In this document: positions 5,319 through 22,461 of the stretch, piece by piece
Numbering within the stretch: the first letter of the stretch is position 1
Layout of the letters: each line of letters begins with the position of its first letter
Origin: an uncultured Candidatus Saccharibacteria bacterium
Lineage (GTDB): Bacteria; Patescibacteriota; UBA1384; JAMDBS01; CAZXAY01
Direction of reading: 5' to 3'
Assembly: GCA_964638435.1 (NCBI GenBank)
Contig: CAZXAY010000002.1
Location: 15,661-47,660 of the forward strand
Length of the DNA: 32,000 nucleotides
Notes under the pieces: model-generated
What the model was told of the DNA's origin: nothing
What the model saw: the letters and a program-made list of their open reading frames with translations, nothing else
Database searches by the model: none
Translations under genes and position numbers: made by a program

Positions 5319-6503
5319 ATGGCAGAAGGAAAATTTGAACGTAACAAACCTCATGTAAATGTTGGAACCATCGGTCACGTTGATCATGGTAAAACAACCC
5401 TAACAGCAGCAATACTGTCTTATTTATCAAAAAAAGGTATGGCACAAGCCAAACCAGTTGATCAAATCGACGGTGCTCCTGAAGAAAAAGCTCGTGGCAT
5501 TACCATTGCTACTTGTCATGTGGAATATGAAACAGAAAAACGTCACTATGCACACGTAGATTGTCCAGGACATGCTGATTATGTAAAAAATATGATTACT
5601 GGTGCAGCACAAATGGATGGAGCAATTTTAGTTGTATCAGCAACTGACGGGGCAATGCCTCAAACTCGTGAACACATTTTATTAGCTCGCCAAGTTGGAG
5701 TTCCAAAAATCGTTGTATTTTTAAACAAATGTGATCAAGTTGACGATAAAGAACTTATTGATCTTGTTGAAGAAGAAATGCGCGAATTATTAACAAAATA
5801 CGAATTCCCTGGTAAAGAAATTCCCATTATTCGTGGTTCAGCGCTTAAAGCTCTTAATGGAGATGCTGAAGCAGAAAAAGCTATCCAAGAATTAATGGAT
5901 GCCCTCGACAGTTATATCCCAGAACCAGTTCGCGAAATTGATAAACCATTCTTAATGTCTGTTGAAGATGTATTTTCTATCAAAGGGCGCGGGACTGTTG
6001 CTACTGGTAGAATTGATAGAGGCAAGGTAAAAGTTAATGAAGAGGTAGAAATTGTAGGTTTAAAGCCAACCAAAAAGACTGTTGTTACCGGTGTAGAAAT
6101 GTTTAGGAAATTACTAGATGAAGGTATGGCCGGTGATAACGTAGGATTGCTTCTTCGTGGTATTGAAAAAGATGATATCGAACGTGGTCAAGTTGTTGCC
6201 AAACCTGGCTCAATTACCCCTCATACAGAGTTTGAATCAGAGGTTTATATTTTAACCAAAGACGAAGGTGGAAGACACACCCCATTCTTTAAAGGTTACA
6301 AACCACAGTTTTACATAAGAACTACTGATGTTACTGGAGAAGTTGAACTTCCAGCAGACCGAGAGATGGTTATGCCAGGAGATACAGTAACATTTAAAGT
6401 TAAATTAATTGCCCCAGTTGCCATGGAAAAAGGTATGAGATTCGCCATTCGTGAAGGTGGTAGAACTGTTGGAGCTGGTGTAGTAACTAATATTGTTAAA
6501 TAA
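5319..6503 (+). CDS. tuf: elongation factor Tu
   Basis: 394 aa with [18 protein letters not shown] and NKCD motifs. The EF-Tu sequence is highly canonical throughout. Confidence 0.98.
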
Positions 6504-6511
6504 TTACATAT

Positions 6512-6853
6512 ATGCCAAAACAAATTACTACAACTAAAGATAAAGAACCAAAGCAAAAAATCCGTATTAGATTAAAAGCTTATGATCATCGGCTAATTGA
6601 CAAGTCAACCAAAAAGATTTTGGAGACGACAACCAGAACGGGTGCACAAATTGTCGGGCCTATTCCACTCCCTACAGAAAAATCATCTATTACAGTGCTA
6701 AAATCCACTTTTGTTCATAAAGATGCGCGAGAACAATTTGAACAACTTATCCACAAACGCTTGATTGACGTTTTAGACCCAAATTCTAAAACTATCGACG
6801 CTCTAATGAATCTGGACCTACCTGCTGGTGTTTCTATCGAAATCAAGACCTAA
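6512..6853 (+). CDS. rpsJ: 30S ribosomal protein S10
   Basis: 113 aa with [15 protein letters not shown] and GPIPLPT motifs. Confidence 0.94.
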
Positions 6854-6877
6854 CGAATCAAACAAATTATCAAATAA

Positions 6878-6910
6878 GTTCAAAAACTGCCCAAAAGGCA
6901 GTTTTTGAAC
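6878..6910 (+). terminator. perfect 14-bp hairpin immediately after rpsJ
   Basis: gttcaaaaactgcc-caaaa-ggcagtttttgaac. The T-tract lies inside the descending arm. It separates rpsJ from the island. Confidence 0.55.
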
Positions 6911-6917
6911 GATACTA

Positions 6918-6946
6918 TTGACTTTTTTAGCATTATAGTGTATAAT
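6918..6946 (+). promoter_or_regulatory. near-consensus sigma70 promoter (TTGACT-17-TATAAT) for the RRM gene
   Basis: -35 at 6918-6923 and -10 at 6941-6946, preceded by TG. About 105 nt of leader follow, with a small GC stem (gcccg...cgggt) and a gtacc/ggtac hairpin next to the start codon. Confidence 0.6.
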
Positions 6947-7057
6947 ATATTTATACGGTTTGAAAGTACTCGTAATTAGCCAGTTGGTTAAGCCCGAGGA
7001 TATCAACCCGGGTCGATCAATTTTTGTATGGTACCTATAAAGGTACAAGGGAATAAA

Positions 7058-7327
7058 ATGGAAGAGAAAAATAAGCTATACGTAGGCAACCTACCTTACA
7101 GCGCAACAAGTGATTCTTTAAAAGAATTATTTGCTGGCTCAGGTGAAGTTGTCGACGCTGTAGTTATTTCAGACAAATTTTCTGGCCGTTCTAAAGGTTT
7201 TGGTTTCGTCACTATGAAAGATGACGCAGCTGCTGAAAAAGCCATTAAAGATACGGACGGAAAAGAAGTCGATGGACGCAATATTAAAGTTAATATTGCT
7301 CGTCCAATGCGTGAAAACAATCGTTAA
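7058..7327 (+). CDS. single-RRM RNA-binding protein (RNP-1/RNP-2 type)
   Basis: MEEKNKLYVGNLPY carries RNP-2 (LYVGNL) and KGFGFVTM is RNP-1. About 89 aa. The ATG at 7058 is preferred over the ORF-track ATG at 7028. Confidence 0.85.
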   Translation: MEEKNKLYVGNLPYSATSDSLKELFAGSGEVVDAVVISDKFSGRSKGFGFVTMKDDAAAEKAIKDTDGKEVDGRNIKVNIARPMRENNR

Positions 7328-7347
7328 TCGATAGTATAGCGCTAGAA

Positions 7348-7387
7348 AAAATCCCACTTCAAGCATTAAGCTAAAGGTGGGATTTTT
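7348..7387 (+). terminator. rho-independent terminator after the RRM gene
   Basis: A 10-bp stem aaaatcccac/gtgggatttt is followed by a T-run (7383-7387). Confidence 0.7.
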
Positions 7388-7437
7388 GTGTTGTTTATCC
7401 TGAGGAAACATATATCACTATTGGTGTCTTATTTGGG

Positions 7438-7466
7438 TTGACAAATATACTACATTAAAGTAAAGT
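7438..7466 (+). promoter_or_regulatory. putative promoter TTGACA-17-TAAAGT for the small ORF
   Basis: -35 at 7438-7443 and -10 at 7461-7466. A gttaaga/tcttaac hairpin (7470-7494) lies in the leader. Confidence 0.45.
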
Positions 7467-7530
7467 ATTGTTAAGAGATTTAACGCATCTTAACAAAAAA
7501 AGACTATTACAGATATAGGGAGGGATTATT

Positions 7531-7800
7531 ATGAGAAAGCATCCGAGAGGTCCTAAAGTCAGGTCAAATAGAAGTACCGTTAGCCCAGCATCAATTATGA
7601 AAGGAGGTGAAGACAACATGTGCGAACGTGGTTTTACACCTGCGATATTGACAATTCATCAACCAGGTGAATGCTTAATCTCGGAATCAACGGATTCTAC
7701 CTCGACATCTGACGATAGTCATCGCGAAATACCCGTTTTGATCCCGAGCACTCAGGAAGAGAGAGTCGGTGGCGACTATGGTCCTTCGGGAAATATATAG
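7531..7800 (+). CDS. small hypothetical protein (89 aa, or 60 aa from an internal start at 7618)
   Basis: SD gggaggg (7518-7524) precedes ATG 7531. A second strong SD aaaggaggtga (7600-7610) precedes the in-frame ATG at 7618. The N-terminal 29 aa are very basic and the rest is acidic and Ser/Thr-rich. G+C is visibly higher than in the ribosomal genes. No recognisable family. Confidence 0.45.
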   Translation: MRKHPRGPKVRSNRSTVSPASIMKGGEDNMCERGFTPAILTIHQPGECLISESTDSTSTSDDSHREIPVLIPSTQEERVGGDYGPSGNI

Positions 7801-7822
7801 AAATATTCGATTCTTACAAAAA

Positions 7823-7865
7823 GCGCCCTGAGCCTTCTGCACAATTGTGCTTAAAGCCCAGGGCG
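7823..7865. terminator. stem-loop between the convergent small ORF and the NTase gene (bidirectional terminator candidate)
   Basis: The outer stem is gcgccctg...cagggcg and encloses the perfect palindrome gcacaattgtgc. Confidence 0.5.
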
Positions 7866-7869
7866 TTCT

Positions 7870-9291
7870 TCATTTGTTTTGTTTATCATAAATTTGATTG
7901 CGTTGGCGGCAATTTTCAAGATATAACGACCACCAATTTTGCAAATCATTAATCAAAACTGGATTGCTTCGAAAATTACGTAGAGAGAACTCTGCAACTT
8001 CTTCATTTTCATCAAGTTTGAGCCAGGTAAAATCTGCATCATGAAGACGATATTCTTCTTTAAATATTCTAAATAACCATTTAAGAAGATTTTTCATCAT
8101 CCAGCGAGCAATACCTTCATCCTCCCCACGTTTTTCTATATTAATGAAAGGATACATTTTATGACAATTTTCTAACAAGTCAAAAATATTACGACACCTT
8201 CCATTGACACTTGAATGATGTTGAAAAACATAATTATACATTTCTATCTGTCTCATCTGATCAAGAAGATAATAAATTTTTTCTAACCTCTCGCAACAAT
8301 CTTCTTTATTAACTACGCGCACCACAAGCAAAAGAAATCTGATGCCCAAGAAGATTTGTAAGTTTTCTTTTTTGAGCAAAAATGAATTTGCCTTACCTTC
8401 ACTTACAAATTTAATCAATCTTTCTAGTGAACGCTCTTTAACAAATCGGTGACCTTTATGGGTAAAAGAATCTTTTCCATAAAGACCGTGGTCTGTTGCA
8501 CACGGCATGATTATTCCACTTTTTACAGATTCTTCGGCTTCTTTAGTATATATCAATCCTTTAGGACCCAATACACACTGATTCATTGTCACATCCCTAC
8601 TCGCTAAGACATGTAAGATATTTTTGTATAACTCTTTACCAGATTGATCTGTTTCGCCAACGAGTTGTAGAAATTTTACGCCAACTTCATCATCCTTTAC
8701 AAGGATATCGAAGTCACGAATTGGAATTTCTGGGGCGATTAAATCACTTTTAAAAAATGCTTTTAATACAAATCGTGCTGGTCCACCTTTATGCAATACC
8801 CCTTTAGCTAGAGGTATTTTTATTTGTAATTTCGATGATTCACAATAGATTAGCCAAATAATGTTTTCATCTCTAGCTATTGTCATCTCAGGGATAGTAT
8901 CTATAATTTGTTGAAGTGAGATAGAAAAAACATTAGATGGTAATATTAATTCTGGTTCAGGAAGACCATCTTTAATAATGTTTACCACATGAATAGCTGT
9001 GCGTGGAATGGAGCCATCTTTAATTTCAATTTCTCTTAGTGAATCCCAAATTAACGAAAAATATGTATTGATAAATTGCTGGACTTTGTAGTCAAAATCA
9101 GTTTTTCTGGATAACCTAACAAGAGCTGCGTAAAAAAGCATTCCCCATTTTTTTGGTTTTGCTTTGTTAACAATATTGATTAGATTATCATATAATTGTG
9201 AAAATTGTCTTAAGGCAACATCAGCTTTATCCGAAAAAATTCTACCACTGCTTACTATATATTTTTCAAGTCCTCTTGGATCTACCACCAT
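7870..9291 (-). CDS. divergent class-II (CCA-adding / poly(A) polymerase family)-like nucleotidyltransferase with an N-terminal extension
   Basis: Motif order is HKGGPARFVL...IRDFDILV (GGxxR...DxD, motif A-like) and then ASRDVTMNQ (RRDFTxNA, motif B-like). FVKERSLERLIKFVSE is a possible degenerate EDPLRxLRAxRF. The start is set at ATG 9291, 5 nt after SD ggaggtga. The ORF-track TTG at 9333 lies inside the promoter -10. Confidence 0.5.
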   Translation of the reverse strand: MVVDPRGLEKYIVSSGRIFSDKADVALRQFSQLYDNLINIVNKAKPKKWGMLFYAALVRLSRKTDFDYKVQQFINTYFSLIWDSLREIEIKDGSIPRTAIHVVNIIKDGLPEPELILPSNVFSISLQQIIDTIPEMTIARDENIIWLIYCESSKLQIKIPLAKGVLHKGGPARFVLKAFFKSDLIAPEIPIRDFDILVKDDEVGVKFLQLVGETDQSGKELYKNILHVLASRDVTMNQCVLGPKGLIYTKEAEESVKSGIIMPCATDHGLYGKDSFTHKGHRFVKERSLERLIKFVSEGKANSFLLKKENLQIFLGIRFLLLVVRVVNKEDCCERLEKIYYLLDQMRQIEMYNYVFQHHSSVNGRCRNIFDLLENCHKMYPFINIEKRGEDEGIARWMMKNLLKWLFRIFKEEYRLHDADFTWLKLDENEEVAEFSLRNFRSNPVLINDLQNWWSLYLENCRQRNQIYDKQNK

Positions 9292-9331
9292 AACTTTCAC
9301 CTCCAAATTGTTCAAGGACAAAGATGACTTC

Positions 9332-9360
9332 AATATAGCAATACACTAAGTGTATGTCAA
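9332..9360 (-). promoter_or_regulatory. consensus promoter (TTGACA-17-TATATT, minus strand) with an embedded palindromic operator-like site
   Basis: On the minus strand the -35 is at 9360-9355 and the -10 at 9337-9332. The spacer and -35 carry the perfect inverted repeat atacac-taa-gtgtat (9341-9355). Confidence 0.55.
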
Positions 9361-9400
9361 GAAAAAAATCCTTTTATTACCTACTGTGGATAAGCATCTA

Positions 9401-9428
9401 TTGACAAAATTATATTTAATGGTAGATT
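9401..9428 (+). promoter_or_regulatory. candidate promoter TTGACA-16-TAGATT for the 263-aa ORF
   Basis: -35 at 9401-9406 and -10 at 9423-9428. An alternative is TTGAAT-17-TATGGT at 9512-9540. Either choice leaves an AT-rich leader that contains an extra SD-like taggaggtg (~9553-9561). Confidence 0.3.
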
Positions 9429-9611
9429 AATATAGATAGGTATATAAGCTTATTGGTTATTTTACGAAAGCCATAGCCTATTTTTATTTGCATATTAAAA
9501 ATTGAATAAATTTGAATATGTGAGCAAAAACAGGTATGGTAAAATTGATAAATAGGAGGTGTTTTCTTTAAAAAAAGGTATTCTGATTCTAAATTTCAAA
9601 GGAGGAATGTT

Positions 9612-10403
9612 ATGGAATCAACCGAGAAAAATCCAATAGGAATTGCCTTCGGACTCAAAAATTCCAGACGTATGTTCTGGATCGAAACCACAGATACTGT
9701 TGAACAAGTCACCAGAGCCCTTATCAAGAGTGTTATCAAGGCAGCACCAGATGCTATAGCCCTTGGGTATGTCGGCGAAAAACCACGTGAGGCAATGCTG
9801 ACTGACCACGTGAAAGATCTGGTTCTCGTGATCGAGGTTGATAAGAAAAAACTCCACGATCTCCGAAGTGAATCCGACAAAAATCTGGAATTGGTAAGCC
9901 TAGTAGACCGCATTAACGCTTTCAAAGAAAGCGGTTGGCAGGCAGAATACTTTACCAGGTCAATGGCTGCAGTCCGCGGCTTTATCAAGACCGATCTTCT
10001 TAATCGTGTGGTTAACCGACGAGCTGTGGTCGATCGTGAAACTAAGATTCATGTCGGCTGGGCCTGGTTCAAAACACTTATCAACCACGCCAGCGAGATT
10101 CGCTGCCTGATCCTCAATGAACCCTTTGGCGCTACAGTGGAAAAAATCATGCCTGCTACTGAGAATAATGTGTCTCAACCGGTTATGGAAGATTCTTTGG
10201 TTTCCACAGAACCACCCATAGTTCAAATCGCATTCATCACCAAAGAAGTGTCTCAGTTGCCAAAACCTATGACCGAGCAAGTTCAGAAATCAGAAACGTT
10301 CGGTACACCACCAGTTAAAGCCAAGAGATCCAGCAAAAGGAAAAAGGTCGTCGAGGCTTCTCAGAATCAGGGCATCATTCAGGAAGTCGAAGTCGGAGCA
10401 TAG
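9612..10403 (+). CDS. hypothetical protein, compositionally foreign (higher G+C), with a basic disordered C-terminal tail
   Basis: SD aaaggagg (9598-9605) precedes ATG 9612. Codon usage (ATC, CTC, GAC, ACC, GTC) is unlike the AAA/ATT/TTA-rich host genes. The C-terminus PPVKAKRSSKRKKVV is Lys/Arg-rich. No family recognised. Confidence 0.6.
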   Translation: MESTEKNPIGIAFGLKNSRRMFWIETTDTVEQVTRALIKSVIKAAPDAIALGYVGEKPREAMLTDHVKDLVLVIEVDKKKLHDLRSESDKNLELVSLVDRINAFKESGWQAEYFTRSMAAVRGFIKTDLLNRVVNRRAVVDRETKIHVGWAWFKTLINHASEIRCLILNEPFGATVEKIMPATENNVSQPVMEDSLVSTEPPIVQIAFITKEVSQLPKPMTEQVQKSETFGTPPVKAKRSSKRKKVVEASQNQGIIQEVEVGA

Positions 10404-10428
10404 TCAGAATCCAAGCACCGAACATTCC

Positions 10429-10457
10429 GCCGTAGTTTTATAACTGCGGCTTTTTTA
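10429..10457 (+). terminator. rho-independent terminator after the 263-aa ORF
   Basis: gccgtagtt-ttat-aactgcggc (one G-U pair) is followed by tttttt (10451-10456). Confidence 0.7.
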
Positions 10458-10466
10458 TTAATAGTA

Positions 10467-10495
10467 TTGACAAGATAATAACTATTTGATAAACT
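10467..10495 (+). promoter_or_regulatory. promoter TTGACA-17-TAAACT re-starting the ribosomal operon at rplC
   Basis: -35 at 10467-10472 and -10 at 10490-10495. A ~110-nt leader carrying direct repeats tttagac x2 and acgatt x2 precedes rplC. Confidence 0.5.
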
Positions 10496-10609
10496 TAAAT
10501 TAGAAATCTTTAGACAATTTACGATTTCATGATAAGCCTAAAAAACGATTCACATAAGGTGGATTGGTTTTAGACTATATTTAATTGTAATGTAAATTTA
10601 GGACAAATT

Positions 10610-11239
10610 ATGGTAGCAATTATGGGTAGAAAATTGGGAATGACTAGAATTTTTGATGCCAATGGTAAGGTAACCCCTGTAACTTTAATTGAGGCTGGCC
10701 CATGTTTTATTACCCAAATTAAAAGTAAAAATAGTGATGGTTATGAAGCTGTTCAAATTGGTTTTGATAAATCCAAACATCCAAAAAAACCACAAATTGG
10801 ACACCTAAATAAAATTAAAAACGAAAAATTAAAAGTAATAAATTTAAAATATTTAAGAGAATACCAAATAAATGAAAACACAACCGATTTAAAAGTTGGT
10901 GATGAAATAAATCTTGATAATTTTAAAGTAAATGATGTAGTCAGCATAACATCTGTTAGTAAGGGTAAAGGTTTTGCAGGCGGGGTTAAGCGTCATGGCT
11001 TTACTACAGGGCCAAAAACACATGGATCTTGTAATTACCGAAAACCAGGTTCAATCGGCGACACACAACCTGCTAGAGTATATAAAGGTAAACGTATGGC
11101 AGGTCATATGGGTAATAAACAAATTACAATTGATAAAACAACCATTGTAGACATTAATTTAGAAAAAAAATTAATTGCTGTTAAGGGTGGTGTGCCAGGA
11201 TCAAACAAAACATTAGTTTATATTAATAAATTTAACTGA
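10610..11239 (+). CDS. rplC: 50S ribosomal protein L3
   Basis: MGRKLGMTRIFD and KGKGFAGGVKRHGF motifs. The start could instead be ATG 10622. Confidence 0.94.
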   Translation: MVAIMGRKLGMTRIFDANGKVTPVTLIEAGPCFITQIKSKNSDGYEAVQIGFDKSKHPKKPQIGHLNKIKNEKLKVINLKYLREYQINENTTDLKVGDEINLDNFKVNDVVSITSVSKGKGFAGGVKRHGFTTGPKTHGSCNYRKPGSIGDTQPARVYKGKRMAGHMGNKQITIDKTTIVDINLEKKLIAVKGGVPGSNKTLVYINKFN

Positions 11240-11292
11240 AAGGTTGACCCCGTATAAGCTACTACGTGATTATACTGGGTGAATATAATGGG

Positions 11293-12039
11293 ATGATAAA
11301 AGTCAAACGATATGACAATCTAGGCAAAGAATTGGATGCATTACAACTTAATGATAAAATATTTGGTTTAAAAATTAATAATGACCTAATACATCAAGCA
11401 GTTGTAACTCAACTCGCTAACGCTCGCCAATCAAGTGCACATAGTAAAACTAGATCAGAAGTAGCTGGTAGTGGTAAAAAGCCTTGGCGACAAAAAGGCA
11501 CTGGACGAGCCAGATCAGGTTCTGTTAGAAATCCAATCTGGGTTGGTGGGGGAATCAACTTTGGACCAAGAAATGTTAGAAATTATTCTTTAAACATTCC
11601 TAAAAAAATGAAGCGTTCTGCATTATTCCAAGCCCTGACTGCTAAAGTTGCTGAAAATAAGTTTATTATTGTTGACGAGATCAATTTTAAATCACCCAAA
11701 ACAAAACTTGCAGTAAAACTTATTGAATCATTACCTTCAATTTCTGGAACCATATTAGTTGTAAATGATAAAACAAATGTTAAAGTAGAATTAGCCTTTA
11801 AAAATTTACCTTACGTTAAAACTATATTAGCCAGAAATTTAAATATTATTGATGTACTTAAGTATAATTGGATTATTGCTTCATCGTTAGCTGTTAAAGA
11901 AATAGAATCTGTATTTTTAAAAATAAAAGACAGTAATTTAAATAAAGATGAAAATAATGAAGATAGTAAAGTAAAAAGAACCAAAAAAGAAATTTCTGTA
12001 AAAAAATCAGTTAAAACTAAAAAAAATGTCAAAAATTAA
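11293..12039 (+). CDS. rplD: 50S ribosomal protein L4 (Lys-rich C-terminal extension)
   Basis: SGKKPWRQKGTGRARSGS motif. The start is set at MIKVKRYD. The ORF-track GTG at 11266 is possible but less likely. Confidence 0.9.
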   Translation: MIKVKRYDNLGKELDALQLNDKIFGLKINNDLIHQAVVTQLANARQSSAHSKTRSEVAGSGKKPWRQKGTGRARSGSVRNPIWVGGGINFGPRNVRNYSLNIPKKMKRSALFQALTAKVAENKFIIVDEINFKSPKTKLAVKLIESLPSISGTILVVNDKTNVKVELAFKNLPYVKTILARNLNIIDVLKYNWIIASSLAVKEIESVFLKIKDSNLNKDENNEDSKVKRTKKEISVKKSVKTKKNVKN

Positions 12040-12051
12040 TTAAATAAGTTT

Positions 12052-12336
12052 ATGAAGCAAATAATTTCTAAACCAATAATATCAGAAAAATCTATGGGTC
12101 TTACTCCAGAAGGCAAATATGTTTTTATAACAGAAAAAGGAGTAAATAAACCTCAAATCGCCCAAAAGATAAATGAAATTTACAAAGTTAGAGTTAAAAG
12201 TGTAAATATTATTAATGTTCAAGGTAAAACCAAAAGGTATAAAGGCAGATTTAGTGGTAAAACTAGCAATTGGAAAAAAGCCATTGTTACGCTAGAAAAA
12301 GGTCAAAAAATATCTGATTTCGAAATTAAGAAGTAA
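12052..12336 (+). CDS. rplW: 50S ribosomal protein L23
   Basis: 94 aa with ISEKSM and WKKAIVTL motifs, in the expected operon position. Confidence 0.9.
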   Translation: MKQIISKPIISEKSMGLTPEGKYVFITEKGVNKPQIAQKINEIYKVRVKSVNIINVQGKTKRYKGRFSGKTSNWKKAIVTLEKGQKISDFEIKK

Positions 12337-12344
12337 ATAAATAT

Positions 12345-13190
12345 ATGCCAATAAAGATATATAAACCAACAACTCAAAGCAGAAGAAAAATGAGCACAAT
12401 AGTCTCGGATGAAATTACTAGAAAATTTCCTGAGAAATCTTTGCTTTGTCCAATAAAAAAACATGCAGGTCGTGATAGATTTGGTCACATATCAGTTAGA
12501 CACCGTGGTGGTGGTGCAAAAAGAATGTATAGAATTATATCATCACTCCAAGAAAGATTGGGCGAATCAGCAAAAGTAATTTCTATCGAATATGATCCAA
12601 ATCGTTCTGCAAGAATTGCCTTGGTAGAATACACAGATAAGAAAAAAATATATATTGTTGCCCCACGTGATTTAAAAGTGGATATGGAAGTTAAGGCAGA
12701 TTATAAAACCGCTATTAAGACTGGTAATAGAATGCAATTAACGAACATTCCTACTGGTATTAATGTTTATGATGTGGAATTAACCCCAGGACGTGGTGGT
12801 AAAATAGCTCGCAGTGCCGGAAACTATGCAGTAATAATGTCTCAAGCAGAAGGTACTGGTAAAAGGGCTAAATACGTTCAGGTAAAAATGCCATCTGGTG
12901 AAATTAGACTAGTTCATAGTGATTGCTATGCATCTATTGGATCCGTAAGTAATTATGAACATGATTCAATAAGGTTTGGCAAGGCAGGTAGAAAAAGACA
13001 TATGGGAATTAGACCATCTGTTAGAGGTAAAGCAATGAATCCAAATGATCACCCACACGGTGGTGGAGAGGGAGTTAACCCAATTGGATTAATCCATCCT
13101 AAAACTCCTTGGGGTAAACCAGCTATGGGGTTAAGAACCAGAAAAAATAAATCCACTAATAAATTTATTGTTAGAAGAAGGGATAAATAA
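12345..13190 (+). CDS. rplB: 50S ribosomal protein L2
   Basis: HRGGGAKR and [12 protein letters not shown] motifs. Confidence 0.96.
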
Positions 13191-21417: not shown

Positions 21418-22461
21418 ATGTCAAAATTACAACAAAACAAAAGTTTATTTAATTTAATGATTGTAGTTTTGGGAATAATAGCCATTGGTATATTATTTAC
21501 CACCAATGGAAGCAAACTCACAACAAAAACAACATCTAATTCTGACGACATCAGTCAAAATAATCAAAATCAAGGTGGCGGTGATCTAGATACTAAAAAA
21601 CTTGTTGAAACCATACCTACCCAAAAAATTTTATACAGTATAATAAATGATAAATATACTGATATTTATTCCTATGATTTTGTGACTAATAAACCATCAA
21701 AAGTTTTTACAGACAAAGATGAAGTTGATAAAATTAAAACTATATCATCTATAACAAATGAAGGTAAAGTGCTAGCGTTAATGAGCCAACCTGGACAAGA
21801 ATTTTCTGGCAAACTATATTTAATTAGAACCGATGGATCTGGTAAAAAAGAATTATTAATAGATGATTTTGCTAGTCCACAACCTGCTCAAATATCTCCA
21901 GATGGTAAAAAACTCTGTTATATATTGTTCTCTAATTCTGAGAAAGATTTTGGTTTTAAATTAATTGAGGCTGATAGTGATGGCTCTAACAAAAAACAAC
22001 TTACCACTGATACAACCAATATATCTCAACTAGGCTGGTCCCCTGATTCTAATAGTTTTGTATACATCAAAAGCAATAATAATGATATGTATAAAATTAA
22101 TATCACTACCTTAAAAGAAGAAAAAATTACGACTTTTAATGATGATCAATTACAAAGCTTTTCATGGAGTGAAATTGGAATTATTATTAGTAAATATCAA
22201 AAAGGAAATAATAATTTTAATAATGCCGAAATTTTTACTATTAATCTAACCGATAATTCTACTAAAAAAATTACTAGCAATTCACTTTACGATAATTTTG
22301 CTTATTACGATTCATTGGGTAATTTAGTATATTTGAGTCTTGATTATGATATTAAAGATGCCAATATACTTTATAAACAAGGGAAAATTCAACTATTATC
22401 CACAAATGGGATTACCAAAGAAGTTACTAACGCTAATCAAATATTAGGCTGGAAAAATTAA
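21418..22461 (+). CDS. membrane-anchored TolB-like (PD40 beta-propeller repeat) protein
   Basis: N-terminal TM LFNLMIVVLGIIAIGILFTT. Repeated ISPDGKKLCY and WSPDSNSFVY motifs are typical of PD40/WD40-like propeller blades. Confidence 0.55.
   Translation: MSKLQQNKSLFNLMIVVLGIIAIGILFTTNGSKLTTKTTSNSDDISQNNQNQGGGDLDTKKLVETIPTQKILYSIINDKYTDIYSYDFVTNKPSKVFTDKDEVDKIKTISSITNEGKVLALMSQPGQEFSGKLYLIRTDGSGKKELLIDDFASPQPAQISPDGKKLCYILFSNSEKDFGFKLIEADSDGSNKKQLTTDTTNISQLGWSPDSNSFVYIKSNNNDMYKINITTLKEEKITTFNDDQLQSFSWSEIGIIISKYQKGNNNFNNAEIFTINLTDNSTKKITSNSLYDNFAYYDSLGNLVYLSLDYDIKDANILYKQGKIQLLSTNGITKEVTNANQILGWKN

Follow-up and report, generated by a model that had tools for sequence, protein, structure and literature searches.

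The closest described counterpart of the gene cluster discussed here is the canonical str-S10-spc cluster of ribosomal protein genes, with its E. coli-type S10 operon rpsJ-rplC-rplD. We have analysed a stretch of 32,000 nucleotides of contig CAZXAY010000002.1 (assembly GCA_964638435.1, positions 15,661 to 47,660; hereafter the window), in which the overall gene order of this cluster is alike: rpoC', rpsL, rpsG, fusA, tuf, rpsJ, four extra open reading frames (ORFs), rplC, rplD, rplW, rplB, rpsS, rplV, rpsC ... secY, adk, map. Unlike in the canonical S10 operon, however, rpsJ (S10) is joined here to tuf and has a terminator behind it, and rplC (L3) opens a new unit with a conserved promoter and leader. 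The stop of rpsJ is at 6853 and the start of rplC at 10610, and the gap contains 3.76 kb of unrelated genes, namely the gene of a small RRM protein, a small ORF, a 487-amino acid (aa) ORF coding for a nucleotidyltransferase-like protein and an ORFan of 263 aa. A near-consensus promoter and a hairpin terminator were predicted by sequence scan for each of these four non-ribosomal genes, and judged from these consensus signals each of them looks like a transcription unit of its own. The initial annotation of this DNA had described the split of the S10/L3 junction by four non-ribosomal genes, the perfect 14-bp hairpin behind rpsJ and a series of promoters including TTGACA-17-TAAACT of rplC; this layout was confirmed, the hairpin was found at 6878-6910, and every quoted promoter could be located together with one additional promoter-like site at 9401-9428, while the three gene orientations claimed for the junction are in fact two.

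It is likely that we are dealing with a transcriptionally insulated S10|L3 site in a genome of the ACD58 lineage, now Candidatus Berkelbacteria within the candidate phyla radiation (CPR) (PMC4742961), where unrelated genes have accrued in at least two layers and the four genes would act as independent units that form no functional module. The lineage is taken from the names ACD_58C00239G0002 to G0005 ('uncultured bacterium') borne by proteins of the window, ACD58 being a lineage of the Rifle aquifer metagenome. Insulation of the site is suggested by the fact that rpsJ ends in a terminator and that rplC has its own promoter and leader. The first layer, which would be inherited and common to a sister lineage, would comprise a housekeeping-like RRM gene with its own promoter and structured leader, probably regulated post-transcriptionally or autoregulated, and additionally the small, fast-evolving protein gene of 89 aa. 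The second layer, proposed for this genome only, would be about 2.6 kb of DNA placed between the terminator of the small ORF and the -35 box of rplC, and would carry the nucleotidyltransferase-like gene of native composition along with the divergently transcribed 263-aa ORFan of foreign composition.

The evidence for the two layers comes mainly from L082, a 3.2-kb sister Berkelbacteria contig of another sample, which was reached via the 90%-identity cluster of the window S10. Its elements begin with tuf, rpsJ, hairpin, promoter, RRM gene and terminator; a second promoter (TTGACA), an ORF of 88 aa and the 90-aa homologue of the small ORF with its terminator come next, and rplC closes the series behind its promoter (TTGACA-17-TAAACT) and leader. 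The amino acid identity between the window and L082 is 93% for tuf, 88% for S10, 97% for the RRM protein, 66% for L3 and 35% for the small ORF, and neither the 487-aa gene nor the 263-aa gene was detected in L082 by BLASTN, alignment and protein comparison. According to BLASTN and alignment the DNA homology ends at about 7870 and restarts at about 10463, therefore some 2.6 kb are specific to the window, and this segment is flanked by the terminator of the small ORF and the -35 box of rplC, which are approximately 14 nt apart in L082. Out of the 3.7 kb only 7873-10462 is missing in L082, and the self-contained 3.7-kb island proposed in the initial annotation is not supported: the RRM gene and the small ORF stand at the same junction in the sister contig. 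In the comparison of empty and occupied site that was suggested there, L082 is devoid of the 487-aa and 263-aa genes, but the site is not empty of the other two. Since L082 has both of these at the same junction, and the RRM gene is more conserved than tuf and rpsJ, the RRM gene and the small ORF look vertically inherited and not like recent acquisitions.

The signals around the genes follow the same division. Three of the promoters quoted in the initial annotation are conserved at the L082 locus; the stem of the rpsJ hairpin is retained there with an altered pair (CTGCC/GGCAG versus CTACC/GGTAG), and the flanks of the 7822-7867 terminator are homologous to the small-ORF terminator of L082. 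All hairpins of the junction fold far better than shuffled controls. The 7822-7867 hairpin is stronger on the minus strand and is followed there by a U-run, therefore it would also serve the convergent 487-aa gene.

The second line of evidence is the composition of the genes. The 263-aa gene has a third-codon-position G+C content (GC3) of 0.470 and the lowest codon-usage score (-1.345) among the 40 genes of the window, and the small ORF is the second outlier (GC3 0.378, score -1.255); the mosaic composition noticed in the initial annotation is thereby substantiated. Host-like values were obtained for the 487-aa gene (GC3 0.236) and for the RRM gene (0.267), the GC3 of the other 36 window genes being 0.12-0.31. 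The small ORF of L082 is likewise GC-rich (GC3 0.367), so the GC-richness appears to be a property of this gene and no mark of a recent transfer. Within the 3.7 kb a clearly foreign composition is restricted to the 263-aa gene, whose codon usage speaks for a recent arrival. The 263-aa protein found itself as the only hit among 5.8 billion protein clusters, and gave no family, PDB, PADLOC, PHROG, phage or viral match; exact look-ups of the 487-aa and 263-aa proteins returned nothing either. The good ribosome-binding site, the promoter-like site, the terminator and a length far beyond chance at this GC argue that the 263-aa ORF is a real gene. The coordinates of the features are collected in Table 1.

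Table 1. Features of the rpsJ-rplC junction; positions refer to the window, promoters and terminators are predictions
Feature	Position	Strand	Remarks
tuf	5319-6503		upstream of rpsJ
rpsJ (S10)	6512-6853	+	8 nt after tuf; predicted to close the upstream transcription unit; named '30S ribosomal protein S10' in the source
Perfect 14-bp hairpin, terminator after rpsJ	6878-6891/6897-6910		A-tract, GC core, U-tract; -21 kcal/mol, z = -7.8
RRM gene promoter, TTGACT-17-TATAAT	6918-6946	+	11/12 consensus matches; L082 counterpart TTGACA...TATAAT
RRM gene 5' leader, structured	6953-7057	+	near-identical in L082
RRM gene	7058-7327	+	89 aa, single domain; in-frame upstream ATG at 7028 unlikely as start
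Terminator hairpin of RRM gene	7347-7387	+	-20.3 kcal/mol, z = -4.5, then U-run; present in L082
Small-ORF promoter, TTGACA-17-TAAAGT	7438-7466	+	87% identity to L082 1825-1863
Small ORF, fast-evolving	7531-7800	+	89 aa; Arg/Lys-rich N-terminus, conserved C-terminus GGDYGPSG
Bidirectional terminator of small ORF (+) and 487-aa gene (-)	7822-7867		-25.4 kcal/mol on +; -34.3 kcal/mol with U-run on -
Window-specific segment, ~2.6 kb	7873-10462		absent from L082; boundaries accurate to a few bases
487-aa ORF, nucleotidyltransferase-like	7870-9291	-	as 473 aa; ORF reaches TTG 9333
Promoter of nucleotidyltransferase-like gene, TTGACA-17-TATATT	9332-9360	-	TG extension
Promoter-like site of 263-aa gene, TTGACA-16-TAGATT	9401-9428	+	TG extension; ~180 nt 5' of the start codon
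263-aa ORFan gene	9612-10403	+	AAGGAGG as strong ribosome-binding site; basic tail of low complexity at the C-terminus
Terminator of 263-aa gene	10429-10450	+	-14.5 kcal/mol, then U6
rplC promoter, TTGACA-17-TAAACT	10467-10495	+	conserved in L082
rplC operon leader	10502-10609	+	conserved; consensus fold computed
rplC (L3)	10610-11239	+	predicted first gene of the downstream ribosomal-protein unit

As far as the direction of the change is concerned, a gain in the window lineage is favoured over a loss in L082, as judged from this one sister contig, because the 263-aa gene is foreign in composition and the segment fits without scar between terminator and promoter. The alternative, that all four genes stood at the junction already in the common ancestor with L082, as an extension of the ribosomal gene cluster peculiar to this lineage, from which L082 lost the 2.6 kb and the window lost the 88-aa gene, is unlikely in our opinion, although it has more to recommend it than the other rivals discussed below: a comparison of two genomes makes gain as parsimonious as loss, the nucleotidyltransferase-like gene is native in composition and has relatives in other Berkelbacteria, and the location of one family member near an aminoacyl-tRNA synthetase gene and the spc cluster (L088, see below) makes an association with translation genes conceivable. 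Such an ancestral arrangement is difficult to reconcile with the 263-aa gene, whose strongly foreign codon usage and lack of any relative suggest a recent arrival, or with the exact, scarless position of the segment between two signals 14 nt apart in the sister contig; moreover, S10 and L3 are adjacent in the more distant relatives L004 and L005. The layered accrual that we prefer has its own weak points. L082 is the only close relative found, and gain in the window lineage cannot be separated from loss in the sister with it; an exact 22-mer of the RRM leader, with which further close relatives were sought, had no match in the metagenome collection. The host-like composition of the 487-aa gene is compatible with gain or loss, and the promoters and terminators are consensus predictions.

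The 88-aa ORF of L082 (1911-2177), which is absent from the window, lies downstream of the shared promoter and upstream of the small ORF, and its product gave a weak match to the AsnC/Lrp ligand-binding domain (E = 0.0023).

The best described relatives of the first gene behind rpsJ are the bacterial single-domain RRM proteins, such as the cyanobacterial Rbp proteins, RbpB of Bacteroides and the RRM-1 family (PMC11697453, PMC13370968). The window protein is alike: it has about 90 amino acids with one RRM_1 domain and both RNP motifs. The assignment as an RRM RNA-binding protein in the initial annotation is supported by the match to Pfam RRM_1 (PF00076), with E = 7.7e-23 and 80.6 bits versus a cutoff of 20.7, in which residues 7-77 cover the full 70-position model; RNP2 (LYVGNL) and RNP1 (KGFGFVTM) are present in the translation and identical in L082. 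With NCBIfam NF058537 ('RNA-binding regulator', Rbp_regulator, an equivalog domain) the protein scored 96.2 bits, just below the cutoff of 100, and by this comparison it is a close relative, although not a certified member, of that family. What distinguishes the window gene from the known single-RRM proteins is its position between rpsJ and rplC and the unusual conservation of its DNA, including the synonymous sites. From the -10 box to the stop codon (window 6940-7327 versus L082 1367-1753) the RRM unit has 90-97% DNA identity, compared with 72-85% for tuf and rpsJ. The coding sequences differ by 12 synonymous and 3 non-synonymous changes in 90 codons, the corresponding numbers for tuf being 123 and 20 in 304 aligned codons, thus synonymous change is about three times rarer in the RRM gene than in tuf.

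The conservation extends to the leader, where 77 of 80 bases (6941-7020) are identical to L082, and to a hairpin just 5' of the RRM ribosome-binding site (7031-7046), in which pairing is kept via two compensatory pair changes; no Rfam match was found for the leader. Because the leader is near-invariant and its pairing compensated, and in view of the long leaders known from other genes of small RNA-binding proteins, the data point to a constraint on the RRM unit at the RNA level, which might be for example autoregulation via its own mRNA. The own promoter and the long conserved leader would fit a post-transcriptionally controlled global RNA-binding protein. An alternative reading of the same conservation is a recent exchange of the RRM unit between the lineages of the window and of L082. 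Further RRM genes were seen at 3877-4119 of L057 (60% identity to that of the window) and 93-326 of L101 (44%); these are located a few kb 5' of the str/S10 cluster and not at S10|L3. RRM genes may be loosely recurrent near translation gene clusters, or this may be chance.

The second gene of the proposed older layer, the small ORF at 7531-7800, has a homologue of 89/90 aa at the same position of L082, where the frame and the ribosome-binding context are kept; the basic N-terminus is shared and the C-terminal GGDYGPSG is retained via three synonymous changes. No other homologue was found, and no Pfam or NCBIfam family matched. The possibility that the region 7470-7870 encodes a structured RNA (RNase P RNA, tmRNA, SRP RNA or 6S RNA) was also considered and rejected: Rfam gave no match, whether with gathering or with permissive thresholds, no tmRNA was detected, and the z-score of the fold was just -2.7 even with the terminator included. 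Since the reading frame, the C-terminal motif and the ribosome-binding site persist in L082 in spite of synonymous changes, the small ORF is treated here as a real, fast-evolving protein gene.

The 487-aa ORF of the window-specific segment resembles the class II nucleotidyltransferases, that is the CCA-adding enzymes and poly(A) polymerase I (PF01743). In the structures of CCA enzymes (Bacillus stearothermophilus) GG..R, DxD and a later acidic residue make up motif A with the metal-binding carboxylates; RRDxxxN is motif B of the class II nucleotidyltransferases, responsible for ribose 2'-OH recognition, and motif D, EDxxR, serves in CCA enzymes as the amino-acid template that selects CTP and ATP. 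The translation of the window ORF most likely starts at ATG 9291 (473 aa), which lies downstream of the promoter and is preceded by a GGAGGTGA Shine-Dalgarno sequence 5 nt upstream, in agreement with the NCBI gene call; the residue numbers below follow the 487-aa form.

A word-indexed search provided one relative of the protein, whereas the exhaustive HMMER search over 1.84 billion representatives revealed 166 clusters at E <= 1e-3, 65 of them at E <= 1e-30. The family members with names in their sources are all from CPR, being uncharacterised proteins of Berkelbacteria, of the Patescibacteria group and of Peregrinibacteria. In the alignment of 60 family members K182, G183, G184, R187, E202, D207, D209, E234, R246, D247, N251, R305, K308 and W411 are invariant, and D229 is conserved in at least 90%. 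K182 G183 G184 R187, D207, D209 and E234 correspond to motif A, an assignment by position and pattern with no significant alignment behind it, and the invariant R246, D247 and N251 correspond to motif B. An hhalign comparison with an approximate sequence of E. coli Cca paired only RRDLTINA with SRDVTMNQ (motif B) and was not significant. The AlphaFold model computed with the 60-member alignment reached a pLDDT of 91.3 and a pTM of 0.91, compared with a pLDDT of 36.7 when two sequences only were supplied. Ranks 1-8 of the Foldseek search in PDB were all class II CCA-adding enzymes (E = 8e-3 to 8e-2, probability up to 0.92), the next fold having E = 0.46, and the head domains of viral tRNA nucleotidyltransferases and poly(A) polymerases gave local matches with probability up to 1.0 and a root-mean-square deviation of 4.5-6 Å. 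In the model the head domain is preceded by about 170 additional residues at the N-terminus, which form a region of helices and abundant beta structure.

On the basis of these motifs and the modelled fold the 487-aa protein is probably a divergent class II-like (CCA/poly(A)-polymerase-like) ribonucleotidyltransferase, predicted to be active. The family is like the class II enzymes in the best PDB matches of its predicted fold and in its motif A and B residues, and unlike them in that it is undetected by profiles, shows no evident EDxxR, has the N-terminal extra region and a low similarity of the global fold, and has named members in CPR only. The considerations that weaken the assignment have to be stated together. 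The nucleotidyltransferase call rests on motifs and on modest fold matches, with the E-values given above and global TM (template modelling) scores of 0.23-0.31. The EDxxR motif is not recognisable by eye; at the place of class II motif D the family has a basic helix (R..ER..K), which reads K.R..ER.IKF with R301, R305 and K308 conserved, and no ED pair is conserved. Finally, no sequence profile ties the family to PF01743: neither the window protein nor any of the 60 members matched this model at E <= 5, no Pfam family matched any of the 60, the window protein had no match by Pfam, NCBIfam, PADLOC, PHROG or phmmer against PDB, and the family profile found no nucleotidyltransferase among the PDB sequences. 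The tRNA-nucleotidyltransferase-like enzyme of the initial annotation is thus upheld by conserved motifs and predicted fold, but the likeness is not detected by any sequence profile.

We do not call the protein a CCA-adding enzyme. That it is the divergent CCA enzyme of the organism itself, a core tRNA-maturation gene that came to lie here by chance, seems improbable to us. The best fold matches are indeed CCA-adding enzymes, the catalytic and ribose-recognition motifs are invariant, and the homologue in L088 is apparently co-transcribed with an aminoacyl-tRNA synthetase gene and stands near an RsmB/F methyltransferase gene; on the other side, the lack of PF01743 matches in all 60 members, the missing EDxxR and the extra N-terminal residues speak against such an enzyme, and the gene is missing from this site in L082, though it could be elsewhere there. 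Canonical class II CCA enzymes have been reported in Patescibacteria (bioRxiv 10.64898/2026.05.29.728689); a search for them in the 1.76 Mb of loci fetched for this study found none. It is a rather unlikely, speculative possibility that the family is an undescribed clade of class II-like RNA nucleotidyltransferases with a novel N-terminal domain, found until now in CPR only and engaged in a non-CCA 3'-end tailing or repair of tRNA, rRNA or mRNA in these bacteria of minimal genome. Its recurrent position next to translation genes, here and in L088, would then stem from a function in translation-related RNA metabolism, in which the highly conserved RRM protein next to it may take part.

Beyond the full-length family, the hits P0120-P0159 of the HMMER search are proteins of about 410-420 aa that match only head and neck (profile positions ~190-345); ten of them were scanned, including two of about 940 aa, without any Pfam match. 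This tail of the hit list may be a second unannotated branch of the nucleotidyltransferase superfamily.

The genomic contexts of the family bear on the idea, expressed in the initial annotation, that the RRM protein and the nucleotidyltransferase-like enzyme belong to one module. Seven other family loci were inspected; their contexts are unrelated, and no RRM gene or homologue of the 263-aa gene was found within about 10 kb. In L081 a LexA-like gene converges on the family gene from downstream and a partial gene diverges from it at the opposite flank, the short contig L084 shows just one incomplete neighbour, L085 and L087 share a convergent gene of about 310 aa downstream, in L086 the gene is amid metabolic genes of a Berkelbacteria genome, and in L089 it follows UvrA in a UvrA/B context. 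In L088 (10001-11428, GCA_041294345.1) it begins 4 nt behind the co-oriented gene of an Asn/Lys-type aminoacyl-tRNA synthetase and is followed by NTPase_I-T and RsmB/F methyltransferase genes, while the spc cluster, secY, adk and map are located about 6 kb upstream; such a context hints at a translation-related role for the family. The ~310-aa gene (L085 2686-3618, minus strand; L087 11748-12704, minus strand) was considered as a conserved partner of the family and discarded, as it is absent from the other loci and unrelated to the 263-aa protein. The two ~310-aa proteins are 32% identical (E = 1.5e-38) and have no Pfam match, and a partnership in a subclade of the family is possible.

The view that one horizontally acquired 3.7-kb island is present, in which the RRM protein and the nucleotidyltransferase jointly constitute an RNA 3'-end modification, surveillance or toxin-like module, is very improbable in the light of these results. 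It had drawn its appeal from the four non-ribosomal genes with their own signals between S10 and L3, from the atypical composition of two genes, and from the RNA-related nature of both the RRM domain and the CCA-enzyme-like fold. It is largely refuted by L082, which has the RRM gene and the small ORF without the other two; furthermore the RRM and nucleotidyltransferase-like genes are host-like in codon usage, and the two were not found together at any of the seven other family loci. The toxin-like function also found no support, since none of the four proteins matched the defence and toxin models of PADLOC at E <= 1. Like mobile genomic islands and insertion sequences (IS), the 2.6-kb segment is present here and absent in the sister, with one gene foreign in composition; unlike them it is without integrase or transposase, flanking repeats and tRNA target, and its 487-aa gene is native in composition. 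No integrase, recombinase or transposase match was obtained in any of the four proteins with Pfam, NCBIfam and PHROG, no direct or inverted repeat pair brackets 6854-10609 or 7873-10462, and no tRNA gene occurs in the window. A viral, phage or plasmid origin of the 487-aa and 263-aa genes was likewise examined and dropped, as there were no matches in viral contigs, phage or plasmid records, and no other member of the 487-aa family turned up in these either.

An assembly or scaffolding artefact, by which the S10 contig was wrongly joined to the RRM-to-L3 contig, can hardly be credited: the original deposit does have S10 (EKD56304) and the RRM-to-L3 block (EKD56278 to EKD56282, 11.8-kb contig) on separate contigs, and the independent assembly L083 stops about 67 nt after rpsJ, but the window is free of Ns, the RRM-to-rplC block is contiguous in the original contig, and the rpsJ-to-RRM join is independently confirmed by L082, where tuf, rpsJ, hairpin, promoter and RRM gene of another sample are contiguous with homologous intergenic sequence.

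The layered accrual of genes at S10|L3 can be placed beside the behaviour of this junction elsewhere. Among 73 diverse metagenome loci, obtained from an L3-based metagenome scan and comprising only distant relatives (<=51% identity), the S10-to-L3 gap was 12-218 nt in every case, while it was below 600 nt in 54 of the 67 CPR loci. The best matches of the window S10 among GTDB species genomes are other CPR genomes, with at most 77% identity. The gaps in CPR are occupied by diverse genes: a Peptidase_U32 family gene in L003 (8413-9651), an IS200-like Y1 transposase gene in L012 (2757-3467) and a 53-aa ORF in L001, and in L006 the cluster is broken or rearranged (8373-12477), so that S10 is followed by the oppositely oriented genes of Obg, an M23 peptidase and IF-2. 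In a Saccharimonadia group (L015, L032, L035, L036, L040, L041, L043, L053, L058, L071) the S10-L3 distance is 4-8 kb; the gap of about 5 kb in L015 contains six same-strand genes, including those of a PIG-L deacetylase and a MIP channel, and the split of the Saccharimonadia looks like a clade-wide and stable one. The S10|L3 junction is fixed in most bacteria and repeatedly broken in CPR.

Two further observations were made in the vicinity. Between secY and adk of the window there is a 347-aa ORF (21418-22461) without Pfam match, another non-ribosomal gene inside the conserved cluster, and at the corresponding place L088 has an ORF of 97 aa that looks unrelated. The leader of rplC is about 110 nt long, and the comparison of window 10467-10609 with L082 2522-2667 gave a mean column identity of about 85%, versus 71% over the whole promoter-to-rplC match. 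No Rfam family matched this leader; it may be a ribosomal-protein autoregulatory leader that was relocated from rpsJ to rplC.

It should be emphasized that a block of odd genes inside a conserved operon need not be a functional island: this tempting over-interpretation was corrected here by one sister contig that divides the block. The recurrent break or insertion at S10|L3 in CPR matters for the use of ribosomal-protein synteny in binning and phylogenomics. The RRM gene and its structured leader exceed even tuf in DNA conservation, and the protein could be a global RNA-binding regulator whose gene would carry a cis-regulatory leader; to our knowledge, post-transcriptional control is essentially unstudied in this phylum. 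The nucleotidyltransferase-like family, with at least 166 clusters of probably active enzymes, is missed by the Pfam and NCBIfam models; RNA-tailing enzymes are few and important, and the RNA-processing repertoires of CPR are minimal.

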